A stretch of DNA of 64,000 nt. It comes from Cirrosporium novae-zelandiae (taxonomy: Eukaryota). The notes below the pieces were generated by a model. It made no database searches. It was not told where the DNA came from and was given only the letters and a program-made list of their open reading frames with translations. The stretch lies in assembly GCA_026023565.1 (NCBI GenBank), contig JAPETS010000029.1:1-64000 (forward strand), in the 5' to 3' direction. Both the position numbers and the translations under genes were made by a program. Positions 24,510-63,946 of the stretch are shown here, piece after piece. The first letter of the stretch is position 1. Each line of letters begins with the position of its first letter.

Positions 24510-24573
24510 TAGAGAGGCTGGTCGGGTCTATGGACAGCCCTAGTGCTGTCCATAGACCCGACCAGCCTCTCTA
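24510..24573. repeat. Perfect palindrome with 29-bp arms and 6-nt spacer, TA at both ends (MITE-like)
   Basis: TAGAGAGGCTGGTCGGGTCTATGGACAGC-CCTAGT-GCTGTCCATAGACCCGACCAGCCTCTCTA. Confidence 0.9.
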
Positions 24574-24904: not shown

Positions 24905-26554
24905 TCAAACGGTAATCAGAACACTCGCATTCTTATACCAGCTCAGCATAGGATTTTCCCCATTCCTAGTCTCCGTTTCCTCGAGATCAGCCCACCCGGA
25001 TAAGAAGGCCTCGTGTGTCAAGACCCGTGTTAGTTTGCCTGTAGTGGCGCGATAGATGTCTTCGATTAGGTTGAAGTCGGTTGGGAAGAGGATGTCGAAG
25101 TATCCTTGTTCGACCTGTGTGTTGAGGAGGGGTGGTAGTTAGGTGGAGGAGGGGTTTAAGAAAAGGTATGGGGAGGGAAGGATACGTACGAGGGGTGTGG
25201 AGACTGGGACCACTCGTCTCTGGTATCGGGTTTGGACTACCGGTGCGTTTATGCCTCTTATTGCACCTGGTAGGTAGTGGAAATCGCTAGCTAGGAGCCT
25301 ATGCGCCGGGAAATATCTATGGAGAATGTTGAAGAAATCGAGGAGGCGAGAAGGTATGTATTCGGGGTCTGTTAGGTTGGGTGCGAATGGCAGCTGGGAG
25401 CGTAATTGTCGGATGAGCTTTGGAGCGCGGAGAAGGGGGTTATCGTAGCGGGTTGTGGAGGCGGCATCTCGGACGCGGAGATAGCGTTTTACGGCAGGGC
25501 TGAGCGTGCGGGTATAGAATTCGTAGAACTCGCCATCAGCGTCGATAAGGACATTGCCTTGCATCGGTTGTTCCGTTATGGGATCGTATCTCAGGCAATC
25601 GTGGGCGAAATTATCGAAGACTTCTAGGGCTAAGAAGAAGCAAGGGGAGGGGACGATGGAATCCCATTCAAAGATGGATCGGTTAATGATGCTGACATGG
25701 TCTGCATGACCGCGGGCGTAGGTGGAGGTGTCGACTTGACGCCGCTGGAGATCTGCTAGGGAAGAGGAGATTTCGATGATCTTAAATTTCGTGCGCGCGT
25801 AGACTTCGGGGTCTGTATAGCGGATGAAATCGAGGATATTGAGCATGAGGGTTCCGTTTCCGGCTCCCATTTCATATATAATAAGGTCGTGGTAGGGATA
25901 GGAGGTGTGTTTGTAGTTTGTAACAAGATAGTCGGCAATGGCCTCGCCATAGTAAGGCTGGAATAGCTCTGTGGGGGTATGCCAGAGCTGGCGGGTGTCA
26001 TCGGGGTTTTTGGCATCTAGTTCGTCTTCGAATTGACGGTAGCGCTGATCTAAGATACGTTGGAATTCTGGTTCGGAGCGCATGCTATTGAAATCGAATG
26101 GATCGCCTGGGTGGAAAATGACAGCATGTTTGGAAAAGTAGCCATAATTTGGGTTATATAGGCTGTCTAGATAGCTAATCAGTATGAGTCTAATGCCATG
26201 GTGAGAGAAACTATATATCAGACCCTCGATGAAATCCCGCATCGACAGCTTCACACGCCTTGGCCGTTCCCTTCGACCTCGCAGGGATTCCGAGGTAACT
26301 GTTGGATAGTCCTTGATCTCCTTTGCCTTATCCCCTGGAAGCCAGTCTAGCCGCTGCTGCCAATTGCTCTTACTTTTCGTATCCGACTTTGATGACCTAG
26401 TAACATATTGCCGGCGTTCATGGTGGGTTGCTGTTGTTATAGAGCTGAGAGGAGAGGAGGACGAATATTTTGGAGTATAGGAGCTAAGTCTCTGAGGACA
26501 AGGACGGTGGTGGAAAAGCTGTCGAAAGAGCTGGGTGACAATTGGGGAGTCCAT
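24905..26554 (-). CDS. NDUFAF7: Mitochondrial SAM-dependent methyltransferase of the MidA/NDUFAF7 family, 3 exons
   Basis: Motifs MRDFIEDSLYNPNYGYF, WHTPTELF, IYEMGAGNGTL and ALEVFDNF. The last exon ends ..NASVLITV*. Confidence 0.88.
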
Positions 26555-26725
26555 CAATGAAGATGGATGATGGGCGTGTTTGAGATTTGTGGCGGCCAGA
26601 GACTGAACTCCGCAGCTCGGACGACTGACGGAGGAGAACCGGTCCAAGCTTCCCCAGGAACGAATCCGAATTTCCAAGTCGCACAACAAATATCCAGATG
26701 ATCTTCTCTCCAGCTTTCAACCACC

Positions 26726-37276: not shown

Positions 37277-38605
37277 TCACTCCTTTACAGGCGCAGCCGA
37301 AGCAGCAAGAGGAGCCTCCTCCTTCTTCTTTGTCTGGCTTGCTTCAAGCTCGCTCAAGGGAATGGAAAGACCGACCCGATCAACCGTTCGGATCTTCTGA
37401 AGGCCCCCTCCGATTTTGTCCTGGCGCGTAACTAGGTCCTTACGGTCTGTGTCCACGAGGAGGCGAACTAGATCTGGGCGCATGTAGTGGCCTCCGAAAT
37501 CTGCGAGGGCTTTGCTGAGGTGGGCTTCGTCTAGGTCAATCTGTGTATGATGGTGTCAGGGGTTAGGAGATGGATGATAGGGGAAATTGGTTGATGAATT
37601 AGGGTTGGATGGGGTATTCGGGTTCTAGACTTACATCAACGAAAAGTAGTCCTTCGAATTCGTAGTCGGGGTCGGGAACGAGTTTTTGTCCATCGGGGCC
37701 GAAGATTCGGGAGTTCCCGTTGTAGATATGGTAGTCTTCTCGTTCTTTTCCGGGAGGGGTGCTGATATCAACGCCGTGTTTGGATAGCTTTTGGAACGGG
37801 GCTAGGACGAAGGTTCCGGTCTCCATTGCGTAGGCTGGTGTTACAATCTGTATCGTTTTATATTAGCAGCAGGCAGGGAAGCAAGAAGTTGTTGAAGGCC
37901 TTACATCGGAGTTCGCATCACTGATATTAGTGTAAGGATCTGGATACTTCAATGTTGTAGCATGTGGATAGATGGGCCAGGCAGCGATATGGACCTGTTC
38001 GCTCAGGGATGCTGCGTATGCCTTCAAAAAGGGGTTCATATTCTCCCAGCAGTTGAGCTGGCCGATCCGGCCAATCTCAGTGTCCACGACAGATTCAGTG
38101 GTATCGCCGGTTCCGTCGCCAAAGACAAGACGTTCAACATGCGTGGCGCGGATCTTTCGTCGGTGGTTGATGATATCACCATTAGGCGCAATCATCACCT
38201 GAGACATGTAGAGACTGGCAAGGTCAAGCTCGGAATAACCCAAGGAGACGTAGATGCTATTATCGCGAGCTGCGGCACGGATTCGTCGCATCTGGTCAGA
38301 GTTGGAGGGAAGACTGTTCTCACGGTACTTCTTGAGGAATGGAAGACTTTCTTGGTAGGTCACCCTCCACATCCAGTATGGGTATCCGGGAATCCCTTGA
38401 AGAATTAGCATTTATCGATTTTGTAAAGTTGCTAGATATCATCTAACTGCCGCCTACATAGTTCAGGGAAAGCTATCAGCTTGCATCCAGCTTCTCCAGC
38501 CTCGTTGATCCAATGTATGGTTTTCTGAGTAGAGAGTTCGAGGTCAAACCAGCCTGGTTCCGCATTGACGCAGGCAGCCTTGTACTTTCGGAATATGGCA
38601 GGCAT
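37277..38605 (-). CDS. cht: Cyanide hydratase (nitrilase superfamily branch 1), 4 exons
   Basis: [72 protein letters not shown]. The E-K-C catalytic triad is intact, and NCWENMNP is typical of fungal cyanide hydratases. Confidence 0.92.
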
Positions 38606-38906: not shown

Positions 38907-39731
38907 TTGGCGGAGTCTGCCGTTTGAAGTATTAAAACTTCACAGGAGCATATTAGATATTAACTTAATGCATTGATAAGATGGTCAAATATCATTAGAG
39001 GATTGACTGATCATCTGTCTTACCTTGAAGACATGAGTTTTATGCATTGTACATGTACATGTACACTATCCGCCCAGCCGTTTGGAGAATATCTGCGGAA
39101 TAAACTTCCAAGCCCAACAGAGTGGTATCCAGAGCATATCAAAAGGATATATGAAAATCAACGATTGACCATTCATACATAAATGCTGCTTCAGAGTAAC
39201 AATATAAAGTTTCACGAAATATTATAATAGCTGAATATCTTCCTCTCTTATTTTACGCCCTCCCTGGACGGGCCATGATGGCATCGGAGACGCAGAAACA
39301 AGGGATGAAGTAGCTGCATGAACGATGGTCCTACATATCTACTTGAATTATTCAATGGGATCTTTTGTATTATCTTGCGTAACAGATGGATATGTTTGAA
39401 GATGATGAATCTTCAAACAGATGAGCAAATGACCCCAGAGATGTTGTTGGTCTTATCATTTCGGACGAGAGGACTGATAAGAAACTGCTGATTGTAAGTG
39501 AAGCTGACATTCTTGTCGCTGCCCCACACTCTACATCCAATGCTCTTTTCATTCTATAGGAAACAATCCACAATCTTCCTTTGAATCACACTGTGGTTGT
39601 GCGAGGTTTTATTATCCTAGTTCATGCTCCAAGTCCCCGCAATTATCCTTCGCGAAACTCGGGGAGGGGGAAATATTACGTTTTTACAACATTATTATTT
39701 TCACCAACAACCGGTATTTGCGGAAGGCTTC

Positions 39732-42471
39732 ATGTCTGCTAGGAGTCAAACAACCCAGCCTGCTTCCAGAAACCCCCGACGAAAATATACCCAGCCACCT
39801 ATAAAGCTTGCTTGCTTGGCGTGGTAAGTAATCACACTCGATAATGATCCGAAGGTGGTTGATAGAATATGTGGCTGGAACGGGAATCGAGTAATGAGGG
39901 CCTTATCATCTTATTCAAATGATGAACAATCCATTACCCGAGTGATATCCAGTGTAAACTGGACATCACTGAAGGGCCCCCCAGCAGGGTGAAATTGTAA
40001 GCTGGCCACGCGTTTTGTCAACCACCTTCGGTCCTTAGGTCTGAACTATTCTGACAATTCATGTCCATATTAAGTCGAGCATCGCGAATCCGCTGCGATG
40101 GACAGGAAAGATGTTCCAATTGCATCAACAAAAATCATAAGTGTGAATATGCACCTAGTAAACGCGGTGGCCCCAGAGTCTATAAGAAGAAGACACCAGC
40201 GCGGAACAACATTGAAAATGAAGGCCGCGATACAACAACAGCAGAACCCGATGTAGACTTGGAAAGTATACTTGGTCTCTCTAGAATATCCTAATTCATT
40301 GCTGATTATTACAGCTTGGTTCAATTCTCTTGACTGCATCAAAAACTCTGGGTTCGGCCTTGCGACCGTTGGCACTCCTAATAATTCTAGTATAGATGGG
40401 ATGTTTGATAATATATTTTTTCCGAAAGAACAATATACTGACTCAAACCCAACCCCTCCTAAGACATCTTCGTTTGTTAGAGTGTATGGAAATGATCGTG
40501 ATATGTGAGCAAGGCATAACTTCTTATTTTATTAACAAGGCAAGACTAAGTCTAGCAACAGCTTGGACGCTTATTATATCTTTATTCATCCATACTTTCC
40601 TGTCTTGGCTCCACCATTGACATGTCCTCCAGCTGATCGCCCTTTGAATGGCCTTGACTACCCACAAAGGTTTCCTTTGAATGAAGCCTCCGAACTCAAG
40701 TCTTCTTCTCCACTAAGCCTTGCTATTTCGGCCATCCTTGCCCTGATTCCACACCCTGCGGATCAGGATTATTCAAAACCAGAATCCGTTCAGCTTCGGA
40801 GAGCCTATGCCCAGTCCTTTGCCCAGTATGCGCTGAATAGTATCGAGATAGAATCTGAAATGACTGAATCTAATATAAATCCCGCAAAAGCTCTATCAGA
40901 TGGTAGTCCAACAGGTCTCGATTGCCGGACACCATTTCATTCTAGAACCCCGATCATCCTGGAACCCATTATTACCCTTTGTATTCTGAGTGTCTACGAA
41001 TATGCCCAGCGTGGAAATCTCACGAAAATGCGAAGCCGAGTGGCCCAGGCACTTTTTGTAGCTAAAGACATGGGTCTTCATTCACTAGGGCTAGAAGACG
41101 ATGGTTTCGCAGAAGCTAGACGTCGAGCTTGGTGGATGACAGTGAGTTTACCCTCTGATGGATCTGGAATATAGAAAGTAATTTGTATCAGTACTCATGC
41201 GTTTGTCAAGGTTCGATCGTTAGTAATACTGTATGCTAATCCTTCTGCCTAAGACTATGCGTTCCGAACTGATGATAAGTTAGCCACCTATCATTGATGT
41301 ATACGATTCTGAATTCACAACGCCATTTCCGACTTTCTTGTCAGATCCAGGGGTGAGCTAATTGTCTATCACATACAAGTAGTTTACTAAAATAAACCTA
41401 TGGCAGGCTTGGGGGTTTTTCATAAGAGCCCAACGGGCTATTCTCTCAGGTACAATGTTTTGTCATGACCTTGATAAGTGCCTAAAGACTAAATCTAATC
41501 TATCTTGGATCCCGGAGAGAATGGAAAGAATCACCCAGGAAACGGATGAACTTTTGTCTCATGTTGGGCCTGTACTATTCGAATCACCACCAACCGTAGC
41601 GCTTATTGACCCTACGGAAGCTGTTATGGCTACATCTATGAGATCTATCTCGCGTATCAAAATTTATAGGCGAGACTGTATCCTGCACGACGTATGTCAA
41701 TGTAGACAGCTAACTTCTTGATATATAGTGGCAAGATCAAAGCACACCGATTTTGCGCCTTTTCGGACATCCCCATCTTTGTCAAAAGGCATTGTGATTT
41801 TGAACCGGTGAACAACAAAACTACAACCCAAATCCAGCTTGCTCCGTCGCAAATTCCTTTCAAAGCTACGACTCAGCTATGCTCCTGTAATGGCCTAGTT
41901 CAATCAGTACGATCAATTTCCTCGACAATGAATATGCCGGGTTCAGCATCATCGCCAACGTCCCTCTCATCTCCTGACTCAATACTGTCAGAGCTAGGCA
42001 TGAGCTTTCCTTATACAAGCTACACTTCCTCAAAGACCTGTCTAAAAGCCGCACTAGGAATTGCACATACAATAAATGAACTACCATACCCTTATACATC
42101 CTCTGAAGCCTCTCCTGGTAATGCTCCGCGGACCATGCCTGCTTTTGCTTGCTGCGCCATGCAAAGCAGCTACGTCATGCTCATGCTATGCTACAAGGCT
42201 CAAACGGTCCAGTACTCCACTCCTACCGACAATGATGGTCATCATAGTCTCGTTGATGACTTCTTGGAGAGCGTACATAAAGGATTACAGTATATTGTTG
42301 ACGCGTTAGCGAACTATGCTACTGCATTTGAGGCAATCGGTGGTATGCGAGGTATGTTTTCGTCTTGTTCATTTAGCAATTTTATTGTATGTTTAGATGG
42401 TAAAGGTCGGCTGACAATTTATGACAGATGAGATTGAAAATGCGCTCGAAATTGCCTTTCTTGACTTTTAG
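39732..42471 (+). CDS. Zn(II)2Cys6 fungal transcription factor with middle homology region, about 9 exons
   Basis: ACLAC|RASRIRCDGQERCSNCINKNHKCEY (split by intron 39824-40074), YYIFIHPYFPVL, ARRRAWWM and RTMPAFACCAMQ. The last exon reads DEIENALEIAFLDF*. Confidence 0.9.
39849..40031 (+). other. Structured fold-back element inside intron 1 of the Zn2Cys6 TF
   Basis: 30-nt arms (39849-39878 and 40002-40031) give 23 Watson-Crick pairs, 6 G-U pairs and 1 mismatch. Inner helices are 39887-39896/39932-39941 and 39941-39970, the latter with a GUAA tetraloop. Confidence 0.75.
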
Positions 42472-60729: not shown

Positions 60730-63383
60730 GAAAGAGGTCGGATTAGCCTTGGTAGCTGCAAATGAGGGCGTCTGATCGGTCTAGGAAGTTCGAATTACTG
60801 AGCTTTTAGAGTTGAAAAATGATCTTCCGGATAATCTGCATCTAAACCGTCAAATTTATCATTATAATCGTCATTGATAGGTTTAATGATAGCTTGCAAA
60901 TCGCTAAGGTCTGAACTTATATTTGCTCCCCCCATCCTCGTAGATGTACTCGTCTAGATTCCCTACGAAAATAACATCATGATAGGTCAAAGGATTTGAC
61001 GATTCTTCAAATTATAGAAGGGATACTGGGTGGAGCTGACGAAGCCAACGAGACGAGATTCTCAAGAGTGGAATCCTAGTTTGTACGCTTCTCTTTTGGG
61101 GCGTTTGCTCAACACTTTGGGCCTAGAATCCTAATATGCGAGAGATCTAAGACTAAATCGGGAGTGGATTCGAATGGAGTCTTATCGTTCTCAGCCGCTG
61201 GACTGCGGTTAATGAAATAATCTGATGCATAGATGTAGAAGGGCCACAAATATTTAGGCGTCTTGCTGTTAGCTGGGATAGCAGGGGCATGCTTCATAAG
61301 GATACCGTTCCTTCTCTCCGCTTTGCCACTTTCTTGAGGAGGATATCGACTGGTAATTTCGAGACCAATACCTACTGTATATGCCTATCTTCTTAACTCG
61401 TTACTGTTGAATTCGCCTCCCTCGTCGAACCGGAGACATTGGACAACGATGTTAAGCTGAGTCTTTATGGATTGAACGAAATCCTTAATGGTTTGTAGAG
61501 CCTGGCTTTTCTTAGCGAGACATCTAACGGTGACATAGACAGTGGCGAAATCTGTCAAGCAGAGGAAGTACTTCTCCCTTAAACAGCCCTGGACATGGAA
61601 GGGACCACATAAATCAGCCCAGACATGTTGTCCGGGCTTATAGGACAGTGTAACTTTGACGAAAAGTCGGTGATGTTGCTCTGCTTTAATGCAATATTCA
61701 CAAAACTTGTGATTAATGAGACCTTTTGAGGTACATTTCGGAGGACATGTATTTGAGACAGAGAAGGTTCCGATAGCCAATATGACCCATTCTACAATAT
61801 TAGATCCGAGGGGAAATACGACAAGAAGGGGGAGTGATAGCGTGAATAGTACACCGATTAAGACAATAATCTCGCAAGGAGACGGCTTCAGAGCCAGTAG
61901 TTCGGGGGAGCTAAGTGTCGACCAATCCGTCAATGAATGCGACAGGACGACCACCTGGATTTTGGACAATATCGGAGGGTCTACTAGCTTTGAAGTTGAC
62001 TTCCAACCCTATGTCGCTGAGTTTGACAACATTGATAATGTTGCTAGTCAGATTATGTATGTATAGTACCATACATTTTTCAATCGCAGGGCATGAACAG
62101 ATCTATCTAGATGTAGGAGGTTGATGATGACATCTCCATACACTTTATCAGCAGTAAGCTATCCTTCTACAGTCCAGAAGACTATGAACGCAGGCGTAAA
62201 GACGACGAGGTTCTCTCTCGAATGGATGAGACACGTTTGATGGTTCCGGAATCGGCTTCAAAACGATAAAGGACCCAGTCATCAGCTATATCACAGGTGA
62301 TCAGCTTGGCTCGACCAGCTGAATAGATATTGTTAATGTATGCAATATGGCCGCTAAGCTCTAGTTGCTGAGCAATCTTGGCAGGTAAGTTGTCAATATC
62401 AATGGTACGTCTGGTAGCTTTATTGAATACCTTATTTGCTGATTCTCCCCGCCTTTCTTGACCGAACTGATTCAGCTGATCCTTGTTCGGATCCCTAGGC
62501 TTGAAGCCAGCTAGGAGGAGGTAGGGATGACATGCCCAGCACTTATCATGAGTTGTCGGAAGTGCATCAAATGTGGAAGAGTCAGTACGAGCAGATTACG
62601 AGTTTGAGGACTTATTTGACTGGGTGTTATCCTTTAGTTTCGCTGGCTTGACTGGACGAATGGTCTCATTCTCACTAGATAACTTCATGTTCTTTTCAAA
62701 GGACAGATCACGAAGTAGAGTATCTATATTGTGGGACAAACCTGAAGACAGAGTTTCTATCGGACCTAGATGCTGTACTTCTCAGTGATAGTGCCGAGCA
62801 ACTTCCAATAACGAACTTGCTTGCTAATCTCGGTATCCTGTTGAATGAGCGCATGGGCAATCTAATGAGAGCGTAAAAATGTCAGCGTTCTTGGGCCTTG
62901 TAAGATGTAGACGAAGGAACCTCCGAGCAGCTGAGAAATGACTAGTTTCGGGAGACGTAGCGAATCGAGCAATGAGAATAGTCCAGGCTGATGCTGGAGT
63001 CTTCGCGTTCTCGATTATCTCGAAAACGGCGGGACCGACAGACTGGAAGAGCCAGAACTGAGCCGTGTGCTTATCGTCTTGTGTTTCATCCTCTTCCATT
63101 TATCATTTATGAATCGCCTGTTGAAGTCGCTCACTGGCATCAAAGGTGTGAAGTTTCTTGACATCATCTTCATTCTTGAAGTCCACAACAGGGTACCCTC
63201 GAATCAGGGCAAAAACAAGACGTTCCCCGATGTCAGATAAAGTAGGATTCGACCTACTGACAGGTTCTATTTTGACTGAACAGAGCTTGGTAAGTATAAG
63301 GAATTGAATGAGCTTTATGGACCATGATTACCATTGCTTGCGTTATTACGCTTCTTGGTGGTCAGCTTCGCCGGCGAAAGGAA
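60730..63383 (-). mobile_element. Degenerate, truncated Ty1/copia retrotransposon (gag-protease-integrase; no RT/RNase H or LTR seen)
   Basis: Minus-strand order is gag-like (EIIENAKTPASAWTIL), knuckle-like (HDKCWACHP), protease (ADSG..LKNVWY..NIINVVKLSDIGLEVNF), pre-integrase (RMGHIG, CEYC) and integrase core (ADLCGP, TDFAT, RFDEGGEF, PQESGKAER). Many stops and frameshifts. Confidence 0.85.
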
Positions 63384-63385
63384 TA

Positions 63386-63946
63386 GACCAGACCGACCAG
63401 ACCAAGGCCCTTGGTCTGGTCGGTCACATGATGAGACATGGGTTTAATTGGTCAGTGAATAATTGTATAATATGAGTTAATCAAGGTCTTGGCGGAGGCA
63501 TTGAAGTGTTCTTTACCAGCAGCATCCTAGCTAGGGATATCACAAAAGCTGGAATAACCTGCTCTATTCCAGCTAGCTAAGCACACCACAAAAACTGGAA
63601 TAATATGCTCCATTCCAACTAAGGCATTGCCACATTCTGCCGTCCATTGTCCCAATTCCAAAGCTTTCCTTAATAATAATGTAAACTCGTATGCGGAATT
63701 AAAAACATAGGCGCAAAAGTCAGTAAAATGCTCAGCGGAAACCTCACTCAGGGGCACACCCGGCGGGTATTCGGGGGTGGTGAAATATATATTAATTATA
63801 CGCTTTTAGCTCTAGTCCAAACCCAGAATTCAGAAATCTCTAACTCCGATATCCTTAACATCAACAAAATTCCCTTCTCTACCATGAAATTCGCATTTAT
63901 ATAGACCAGATAGACCTTGAGTAGCTAGGGTCTGGTCGGTCTGGTC
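63386..63946. repeat. 18-bp inverted repeats (GACCAGACCGACCAGACC) bracketing about 560 bp; left end contains a 17-bp-arm palindrome
   Basis: 63386-63403 is the reverse complement of 63929-63946. 63391-63407 and 63409-63425 form a perfect palindrome. Confidence 0.75.

Follow-up and report, generated by a model that had tools for sequence, protein, structure and literature searches.

Intron 1 of a Zn2Cys6 transcription-factor gene in Cirrosporium novae-zelandiae is predicted to fold very stably and carries a string that resembles the core of a hammerhead ribozyme. Is this intron a functional RNA, or does its structure have another origin? The sequence-only reading of the locus favoured a degenerate hammerhead or a splice-controlling RNA switch. 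We analysed the locus within a 64,000-nucleotide stretch of DNA (hereafter the window) and compared intron 1 with introns at the same site in homologous genes. Our results point to a foldback DNA insertion in an old and otherwise ordinary spliceosomal intron.

Gene structure and splice sites

The 5' part of the gene and its neighbour comprise the following features:

39732..39823, plus strand: exon 1 of the Zn2Cys6 transcription-factor gene, from the ATG to PPIKLACLA plus the TG of Cys2 (sequence reading)
39824..40074, plus strand: intron 1, 251 nt, phase 2, GTAAGT...AAG (sequence; site intron-bearing in 38 of 60 homologue loci)
40051..40055, plus strand: putative branch point CTGAC, with the A at 40054 lying 20 nt upstream of the 3' splice site (sequence reading)
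40061..40063, plus strand: ATG within intron 1, the start in public gene model P0001
40075..40265, plus strand: exon 2, the T of Cys2, then RASRIRCDGQERCSNCINKNHKCEY... (sequence; Pfam Zn_clus, E 3.1e-05)
37863..38411, minus strand: exon of a divergent carbon-nitrogen hydrolase (cyanide hydratase-like) neighbour (PF00795, E 2.7e-18)

The product of exon 1 agrees with the orthologues P0004, P0017 and P0026, whose N-termini read ...PPVKVACLACRASRTRCDG. As had been read from the sequence, intron 1 interrupts the second Cys codon of the zinc cluster (TG/T), and joining of the exons gives ...PPIKLACLAC/RASRIRCDG, the same as in the Aspergillus and Paecilomyces orthologues. The spliced reading CLAC-RASRIR-C-DGQER-C-SN-C-INKNHK-C conforms to the Zn2Cys6 pattern C-x2-C-x6-C-x5-12-C-x2-C-x6-8-C. 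Exon 2 covers positions 7-37 of the 39 in the Pfam Zn_clus profile, and since the match begins at position 7, the first C-x2-C lies in exon 1. Orthologues of the factor are annotated with PF00172 and PF04082, and in Aspergillus they are annotated as fusions with PF00795 proteins; the nearest named homologues are those of Hypocenomyce scalaris and Pycnora praestabilis, with 58-59% identity across exon 4.

The AAG acceptor had been called weak and is in fact unremarkable, being shared by 5 of the 28 distinct introns that homologues have at this position. The putative branch point can be read against the CTRAY-type consensus of fungi. From the sequence, retention of intron 1 would end translation at TGG-TAA, right after exon 1. 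The N-terminus of P0001, MSILSRASRIRCDG, is identical to the translation from 40061; this public model starts inside intron 1, lacks the first two zinc-binding cysteines and needs correcting.

Folding stability and architecture of the intron element

The strong folding of intron 1 noticed in the sequence-only reading is real and far beyond chance. On the plus strand the whole intron has an MFE of -89.7 kcal/mol (z -5.9; none of 200 shuffles was as stable), the core alone (39842-40037, 196 nt) has a z of -7.7, and the element ranks second in stability among 1277 plus-strand windows of 200 nt. The minus strand of intron 1 proved almost as stable (-86.8 kcal/mol, z -5.2), with 70 Watson-Crick and 12 G-U pairs compared to 69 and 12 on the plus strand. 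Because both strands fold about equally, the structure is best described as a nested palindrome at the DNA level. Introns 2-4 of this gene show no structure (z +0.71, -1.05 and -0.95), introns 2 and 3 being 49 and 57 nt long. The parts of the element are as follows:

39842-39843 and 40036-40037, strandless: TA flanks of the foldback element (placed from the sequence)
39844..40035, strandless: foldback (nested palindrome) element, 192 nt (inverted-repeat and folding analysis; boundaries estimated from the sequence)
39849..39878, strandless: left arm of the outer inverted repeat (repeat search: 27 nt, 81% complementary; fold: 30 positions)
40002..40031, strandless: right arm of the outer inverted repeat (repeat search and fold)
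39887..39941, strandless: internal palindrome b, 11-bp arms 39887-39897 and 39931-39941 (minus-strand fold)
39941..39970, strandless: internal hairpin c, arms 39941-39953/39958-39970, 12 bp and one A-C mismatch (fold)
39969..39994, plus strand: hammerhead-like string CUGAAGG-GCCC..GGGU-GAAA (chance-level motif, no hammerhead match)

The element thus consists of an outer inverted repeat, about 30-34 bp long, and inside it two smaller palindromes plus a stretch that is not palindromic. The repeat is internal to the intron, beginning 18-25 nt after the donor and stopping 37-43 nt before the acceptor. The 81% complementarity of its arms indicates that the element is old. The TA flanks are too short to count as evidence of a duplication, and the boundary they mark was our choice.

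The closing stem (39849-39878/40002-40031) had been counted as 23 Watson-Crick pairs, 6 G-U pairs and 1 A-C mismatch over 30 positions, and the fold bears this out; in the MFE structure it lengthens to 34 bp (39842-39878/40002-40037), with an additional U-C mismatch and a bulge. The helix described as 10 bp is present but comprises only 8 bp in the MFE structure (39896-39904/39973-39980). Similarly, hairpin c does carry a GUAA loop on the plus strand (39954-39957), but its stem of supposedly 13 bp holds 12 pairs and the A-C mismatch. The multi-branched fold and the GNRA-capped hairpin c on the transcribed strand are not required of a neutral palindrome.

All arm differences had been taken for transitions, which holds for the 30-bp stem but not for the extended one, with its U-C mismatch and bulge. 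RIP needs duplications much longer than ~30 bp, and we set it aside as the source of the transitions, the arms being only of about that length. The outer-stem transitions favour the plus strand (6 G-U to 1 A-C), and those of the inner palindromes favour the minus strand, with 3 A-C on the plus strand; palindrome b pairs better on the minus strand, where two G-U pairs replace two A-C mismatches of the plus strand. The total of 6 to 4 over all palindromes argues that there is no strand bias. In the outer stem taken separately, G-U is kept on the transcribed strand for 6 of the 7 transition differences (one-sided binomial ~0.06), and such a pattern would be compatible with some constraint on the stem at the RNA level. 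Scoring G-U as paired biases which arm differences become visible.

A separate, near-perfect palindrome of 64 nt lies in an intergenic region of the window (24510-24573) and is unrelated to the intron element, which indicates that palindromes arise outside introns too in this genome.

Searches for hammerhead, TPP and other RNA families

Rfam cmscan of 39500-40400 on both strands gave no hammerhead, TPP or snoRNA match at E<=10, in agreement with the earlier statement that the TPP aptamer is absent. The only Rfam matches were ceN63 and mir-499, both far under the gathering score (for mir-499, on the minus strand, 14 bits against 60), and an ARAGORN scan for tRNA and tmRNA returned nothing.

The CUGAAGG..GAAA string at 39969-39994 is present as described, but it occurs at chance frequency: the relaxed pattern CTGANGR-N8-30-GAAA is matched 11 times within the window, compared to 9.74 +/- 3.2 expected. 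The conserved core of the hammerhead is CUGANGA (C3-A9), and the string reads CUGAAGG, with G at position 9. In the MFE structure hairpin c includes its C3 and U4 as paired bases. GAAA (G12-A15.1) is found at 39991-39994, yet the closing pair of GCCC/GGGU (10.1-11.1) is G-U and not G-C. Finally, in a hammerhead the NUH cleavage triplet joins stem I and stem III directly, as a three-way junction; here 11-12 nt, unpaired or engaged in other pairing, separate the AUC triplet at 39928-39930 from hairpin c. No repeats or reverse-transcriptase remnants were found near the element.

Fungal snoRNAs are often intronic, and a box C/D or H/ACA snoRNA was considered and rejected, no Rfam snoRNA match overlapping the element. 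A C box has a second GA, which on inspection by eye is missing from the 'AUGAUCC' close to the 5' arm.

The intron site in homologues and the copy number of the element

We collected 60 homologue loci from metagenomes and placed their introns by tblastn together with donor and acceptor peptide motifs. An intron occupies exactly the same site in 38 loci (28 distinct sequences), four loci have none there (L001, L005, L006 and L009), and the N-terminus is not covered in the remaining 18. Many homologues have a second intron within the Zn cluster. Since 38 loci share the exact site, the intron is older than the element; judged from these sequences, its position is ancient.

The sequence-only reading had proposed orthologous introns as a check on structural conservation. 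Lengths range from 46 to 316 nt (median about 59) among the 28 other distinct introns, none of which is structured: their z lies between -2.31 and +1.76, and the same script gave -5.34 for intron 1. Even long introns sharing the site are unstructured (L013, 232 nt; L021, 316 nt; L056, 132 nt). By this comparison the structure is lineage-specific, as it is absent from all 28. When 39844-40035 and one TA are removed from intron 1, 57 nt are left, the commonest length of the orthologous introns (4 of the 28).

A genome-wide BLASTN count of copies had also been suggested. No second copy was found by blastn against the 64-kb window, and in the 35.7-Mb source run, searched at >=80% likeness, a single contig matched 39600-40500; copies diverged beyond ~20%, or removed by the filter of the tool, would escape such a search. 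Neither the stretch nor, at >=80% likeness, an orthologous sequence turned up in two other runs from the study behind the source run, and blastn of the intron against the fungal metagenome loci (380,898 bases) returned a single 15-nt chance match. The check thus revealed no dispersed copies in the window or, at that likeness, in the source-run contigs.

Origin of the element and rival explanations

We consider it likely that an ordinary spliceosomal intron, long established at this ancient and widely conserved site, received a foldback DNA element of ~192 bp in this lineage and carries it as a tolerated passenger. A MITE-type insertion was among the alternatives already named, and it is the one that the evidence favours. 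The insertion, MITE-like or locally generated, is probably a passenger that loops out. As to its source, we lean towards the relic of a small, non-autonomous, MITE-like DNA transposon flanked by TA, and regard an inverted duplication generated at the site itself, template switching during replication being one route, as a serious possibility. In the pre-mRNA the element may fold on itself into a rod, so that the spliceosome would see an intron of roughly ordinary effective length. The element would then act neither as a ribozyme or riboswitch nor as a sequence-specific regulator. The tolerance of the long unstructured introns of L013, L021 and L056 at the same site weakens the looping-out idea.

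A lineage-specific cis-regulatory RNA, be it a splicing switch or a ligand- or protein-binding element, could gate the removal of intron 1 and hence production of a DNA-binding-competent factor. The very stable predicted structure (z -5.9 and -7.7), its place in an intron that splits the DNA-binding domain and whose retention brings in a stop, the six G-U pairs that keep the outer stem paired on the transcribed strand, and the GUAA tetraloop on that strand all speak for such a device. Against this, the opposite strand folds about as well, the palindromes together show no strand bias, the structure is missing from every other distinct intron at the site, and Rfam gave no match, TPP included; we therefore judge it unlikely. 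We give similarly little credence to a palindromic insertion that has since been co-opted as a young, lineage-specific intronic RNA, either a splice-gating structure for the regulator adjoining the cyanide hydratase gene or a hairpin small-RNA precursor, with G-U-tolerant substitutions preserving outer-stem pairing on the transcribed strand. That the 34-bp imperfect stem is a Dicer substrate, yielding an intron-hosted small RNA of milRNA or mirtron type, is distinctly unlikely: the stem, long and almost perfect, with G-U wobbles and a small number of bulges, has the appropriate form, and PMC10710096 reports that template switching or inverted repeats can give rise to new hairpin RNA genes, but no Rfam miRNA match rose above noise (the minus-strand mir-499 match being the only one) and the structure is not conserved among the homologues examined.

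It is very unlikely that intron 1 as a whole owes its existence to an introner-like element, another of the alternatives named at the outset, or to a symmetrical proliferating intron. In length and stability of folding intron 1 exceeds regular introns, which PMC3609843 also describes for fungal introner-like elements, and like the sister (stw)introns of Hypoxylaceae (PMC8469720) it has inverted repeats. Its position, however, is common to the 28 other homologue sequences, long predates the element and so was not made by it, the inverted repeat is internal rather than terminal, and neither the window nor, at >=80% likeness, the source-run contigs yielded further copies. A decayed hammerhead-bearing retroelement, retrozyme-like or Penelope-like, appears exceedingly improbable, although the CUGAAGG ... 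GAAA string does have the short GCCC/GGGU helix between its halves: the motif is at chance frequency, G stands in place of A9 and G-U at the 10.1-11.1 pair, hairpin c contains the first two bases of CUGA, the AUC triplet is 11-12 nt off stem I, no hammerhead model matched at E<=10, and neither repeats nor reverse-transcriptase remnants lie nearby. The chance-level motif, the missing Rfam match, the triplet spacing, the strand symmetry and the unstructured homologue introns together leave unsupported the degenerate hammerhead or splice switch with which the sequence-only reading had headed its account.

Comparison with known systems

The element resembles fungal MITEs in its length of ~190 bp, its ~30-bp inverted repeats at the ends, the TA flanks that can be drawn and its non-coding site, and its excision restores an intron of normal size (57 nt). 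The terminal inverted repeats (arms of 27-34 bp) and the size of ~192 nt, where MITEs stay below about 600 bp, agree with that class; the only target-site duplication that can be drawn is TA/TA (39842-39843, 40036-40037), too short to tell from chance, and dispersed copies were not found in the 64-kb window or, at >=80% likeness, in the 35.7-Mb source run. The element differs from fungal MITEs in being single-copy in our searches, in the 81% complementarity of its arms and in the two further palindromes inside it. A MITE family is expected to be multi-copy, so the single copy counts against this origin. Hairpins made by template switching (PMC8794818, PMC10710096) are like the element in its single copy and its nested or adjacent palindromes, and an unrelated palindrome (24510-24573) exists elsewhere in the window; the net gain of ~190 nt is large for such events and no donor sequence of the arms was identified.

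The zipper stems of yeast (RPS17B type) are short pairings in long introns, demonstrated by probing and mutation, with a linker range of 42-85 nt for such stems in PMC12350175 (see also PMC2536676). Here, the predicted linkers of 22 nt (39824-39845) and 20 nt (40034-40053) add up to 42, which is borderline, and the branch point is putative; in the whole-intron MFE structure, weak outer helices come nearer to the sites at both linker ends than the core fold does. Unlike these stems, the element is a 190-nt palindrome, known here by prediction, in a fungus with introns of ~50-60 nt. Introner-like elements and sister (stw)introns (PMC3609843, PMC8469720) are whole introns with many near-identical copies at newly gained positions; the element shares with them its length, stable folding and inverted repeats, but is an insert, single-copy in our searches, that lies within an intron of ancient position. 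Its site is not a recently gained one, and searches of the 64-kb window and, at >=80% likeness, of the source run gave no near-identical copy. As for the hammerhead, the likeness ends with the CUGA..GAAA string and its short helix at 39969-39994, and the core substitutions, wrong spacing, lack of a model match and chance-level frequency set the two apart.

Significance

Our analysis mainly clears a false lead, in that a z below -5 together with a ribozyme-like string is accounted for by a DNA palindrome in an old intron. The locus also offers a clean natural case of a short-intron fungus in which one intron has been enlarged fourfold by sequence that is self-complementary, and it can be used to ask whether looping-out makes such insertions tolerable.

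The zinc-cluster intron of the transcription factor gene

Intron 1 of the Zn2Cys6 transcription factor gene and the foldback element within it are laid out as follows.

39732-39823, + strand: exon 1, with its ATG at 39732, ending ...PPIKLACLA and then TG
39824-40074, + strand: intron 1, 251 nt, starting GTAAGT and ending AAG
40075-40265, + strand: exon 2, whose initial T completes the second cysteine codon and is followed by RASRIRCDGQERCSNCINKNHKCEY
39844-40035: foldback element, 192 nt, boundary as drawn, with TA on each side
39887-39941: inner inverted repeat, a palindrome with 11-bp arms
39941-39970: inner inverted repeat, hairpin c
about 39971-40001: non-palindromic stretch

As had been read from the sequence, the second cysteine codon is split, with TG in exon 1 and T in exon 2. 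The Zn2Cys6 pattern is complete in the spliced product. Exon 2 alone matches Pfam Zn_clus, and because its match starts only at position 7 of the 39-position profile, the coding sequence for the first C-x2-C must lie before exon 2. The junction in the full-length orthologues P0004 (Paecilomyces variotii), P0017 and P0026 reads ...PPVKVACLACRASRTRCDG. The closest database protein, P0001 (662 aa; 99% identity over exon 4), is a hypothetical protein from a MAG that its source names Cirrosporium novae-zelandiae. It begins MSILSRASRIRCDG, corresponding to the ATG at 40061-40063; because this start sits inside intron 1, the public model is N-terminally truncated and has neither of the first two zinc-cluster cysteines, Cys1 and Cys2. 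The models of P0002, P0003 and P0075, from related fungi, are likewise truncated near the same junction.

Metagenome contigs were scanned with an alignment of 14 homologues, giving 60 loci, and the junction was located by tblastn and then by donor and acceptor motifs. An intron occupies exactly this phase-2 site in 38 of them (28 distinct sequences); four (L001, L005, L006 and L009) read straight through with no intron at the site, and in 18 the N-terminus is not covered. Median length across the 28 introns is about 59 nt, and 57 nt is the most frequent value (four distinct sequences); 25 of them span 46-82 nt, and three are longer:

L056:4673-4804: 132 nt, fold z -0.9
L013:4051-4282: 232 nt, fold z +0.6
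L021:852-1167: 316 nt, fold z -0.2

When all were folded with the same script (100 shuffles each), z ranged from -2.31 to +1.76 across the 28 introns and was -5.34 for the window intron. This comparison, which with homologues as distant as 31-55% identity (best segment) speaks to an old structure and not to a young functional one, shows that the intron is ancient but its fold is not: the structure is no old feature of this intron and is specific to this lineage. The AAG acceptor, which had been called weak, also ends 5 of the 28 distinct introns and is not unusual here. The long introns of L013, L021 and L056 may reflect several independent enlargements of the site or old long forms.

In many homologues (including L007, L011, L017-L020, L022, L025, L026, L035, L039, L040, L046, L050, L051 and L056) the zinc cluster is itself interrupted by a second intron, which separates ...C-S/T-N from the Cys that follows. 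This second intron is absent from the window gene, since CSNCINKNHKC reads uninterrupted within 40075-40265.

A carbon-nitrogen hydrolase (PF00795) neighbours the transcription factor on the opposite strand. In Aspergillus, several of the transcription factor's orthologues carry annotations as PF00795 fusions or go by the name cyanide hydratase, which indicates that the divergent pair is conserved and sometimes mis-merged; such Aspergillus homologues, of about 960 aa with PF00795 or carrying the name 'cyanide hydratase', include P0044, P0045, P0054-P0058 and P0094. The conserved gene pair is consistent with the putative role of 'cyanide hydratase regulator' proposed in the sequence-only reading.

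Fold strength and symmetry of the element

The whole intron folds to -89.7 kcal/mol, compared with -62.8 +/- 4.6 for dinucleotide shuffles (z -5.9; 0 of 200 shuffles as stable), and the core at 39842-40037 to -83.7 kcal/mol (z -7.7). Introns 2, 3 and 4 of the same gene (49 nt, 57 nt and 142 nt, the last folded minus its first base) gave z of +0.71, -1.05 and -0.95. For its G+C content, the element region ranks second of 1277 overlapping 200-nt + strand windows (residual z -3.7), behind an unrelated palindrome at 24.5 kb; 63251-63550 is the third most stable region on that strand (residual z about -3.0).

The structure had largely been described correctly. The 30-position outer stem (39849-39878/40002-40031) is exact, with 23 WC, 6 G-U and 1 A-C pairs, and in the MFE structure the stem reaches 34 bp, interrupted by one U-C mismatch and one bulged U. 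The hairpin at 39941-39970 does have its GUAA loop, its pairing being 12 bp plus one A-C mismatch, and the helix given as 10 bp is present at 8 bp in the MFE.

The reverse complement of the intron folds almost as well (-86.8 kcal/mol, z -5.2), with 70 WC + 12 G-U pairs against 69 WC + 12 G-U on the + strand. The element, made up of three inverted repeats plus one non-palindromic stretch, is a DNA palindrome rather than a strand-specific RNA. On the transcribed strand the transition differences of the outer stem appear as G-U six times and as A-C once, and those of the two inner palindromes as A-C (2 + 1), which read as G-U on the opposite strand. At 6 to 4 overall, the tally shows no general sign that pairing in the transcript has been selected for. 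That all arm differences are transitions does not hold for the extended outer stem, which has a transversion-type mismatch and an indel, and the pattern is partly an artefact of scoring G-U as paired.

Comparison with known RNA families

A cmscan search of 39500-40400 on both strands with all 4227 Rfam families (E ≤ 10) gave just two hits: ceN63, which lies outside the intron, and mir-499 (14 bits; gathering score 60). None of the hammerhead, TPP and snoRNA models matched, and ARAGORN gave no match. Across the window there are 11 matches to the relaxed core CTGANGR-N8-30-GAAA; shuffles give 9.74 +/- 3.2. In the element, hammerhead position 9 is G, the closing pair of stem II is G-U, C3 and U4 lie within hairpin c, and the AUC triplet sits 11-12 nt away from stem I. 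With no Rfam match, a core motif at chance level and wrong core bases and spacing, the hammerhead or riboswitch interpretation that headed the sequence-only reading is not supported.

Probable insertion, copy number and origin

Removal of the element and one TA leaves 18 + 2 + 37 = 57 nt, which retain GTAAGT at the donor, AAG at the acceptor and, 20 nt upstream of the latter, CTGAC. This remainder is a normal intron for the transcription factor family and is the strongest positive argument for insertion; the flanking TA, being so short, carries no weight in this. A blastn search of the 64-kb window (word size 7, E ≤ 10) recovered only the element's own arms. Placement of the contigs of the probable source run (157,048 records, 35.7 Mb) against 39600-40500 at ≥80% likeness, with a filter that may discard some contigs, gave a single contig and none partial, and no second copy was found in the fungal metagenome loci (380,898 bases).

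The element may be a relic of a MITE-type transposon or a local inverted duplication made by template switching, a route described in PMC8794818 and PMC10710096. The copy searches argue against a young, abundant MITE family, and an old, diverged or very low-copy family may be compatible with them; with about 14-19% of positions differing between its arms, the element is old. Introner-like elements are described as long, stably folded, multi-copy creators of new introns (PMC3609843), and the symmetrical sister (stw)introns of Hypoxylaceae as proliferating, with 45-55-nt terminal inverted repeats (PMC8469720). The element has the foldback property alone in common with both; unlike them, it has internal repeats, is apparently single-copy and sits as an insert in an ancient intron.

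An intergenic, near-perfect 64-nt palindrome lies at 24510-24573; its two 32-nt arms are 97% complementary and adjoin without a spacer. It is flanked by a TFIIS-like ORF (+ strand, end at about 23883) and a 525-aa ORF (25139-26716, - strand). Its sequence is unrelated to that of the intron element, and its intergenic position indicates that palindrome formation in this genome is not tied to introns.

In the transcript, the element would fold into a rod, extruding about 190 nt. Its predicted geometry resembles that of the zipper stems of yeast introns, for which in vivo probing and linkers of 42-85 nt are described (PMC12350175; see also PMC2536676). The long introns of L056, L013 and L021 at the same position are unstructured, which speaks against a need for such looping-out. 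That the element is a young structured RNA, co-opted, or a small-RNA hairpin, we regard as very improbable. A passenger foldback insertion is the most economical reading.
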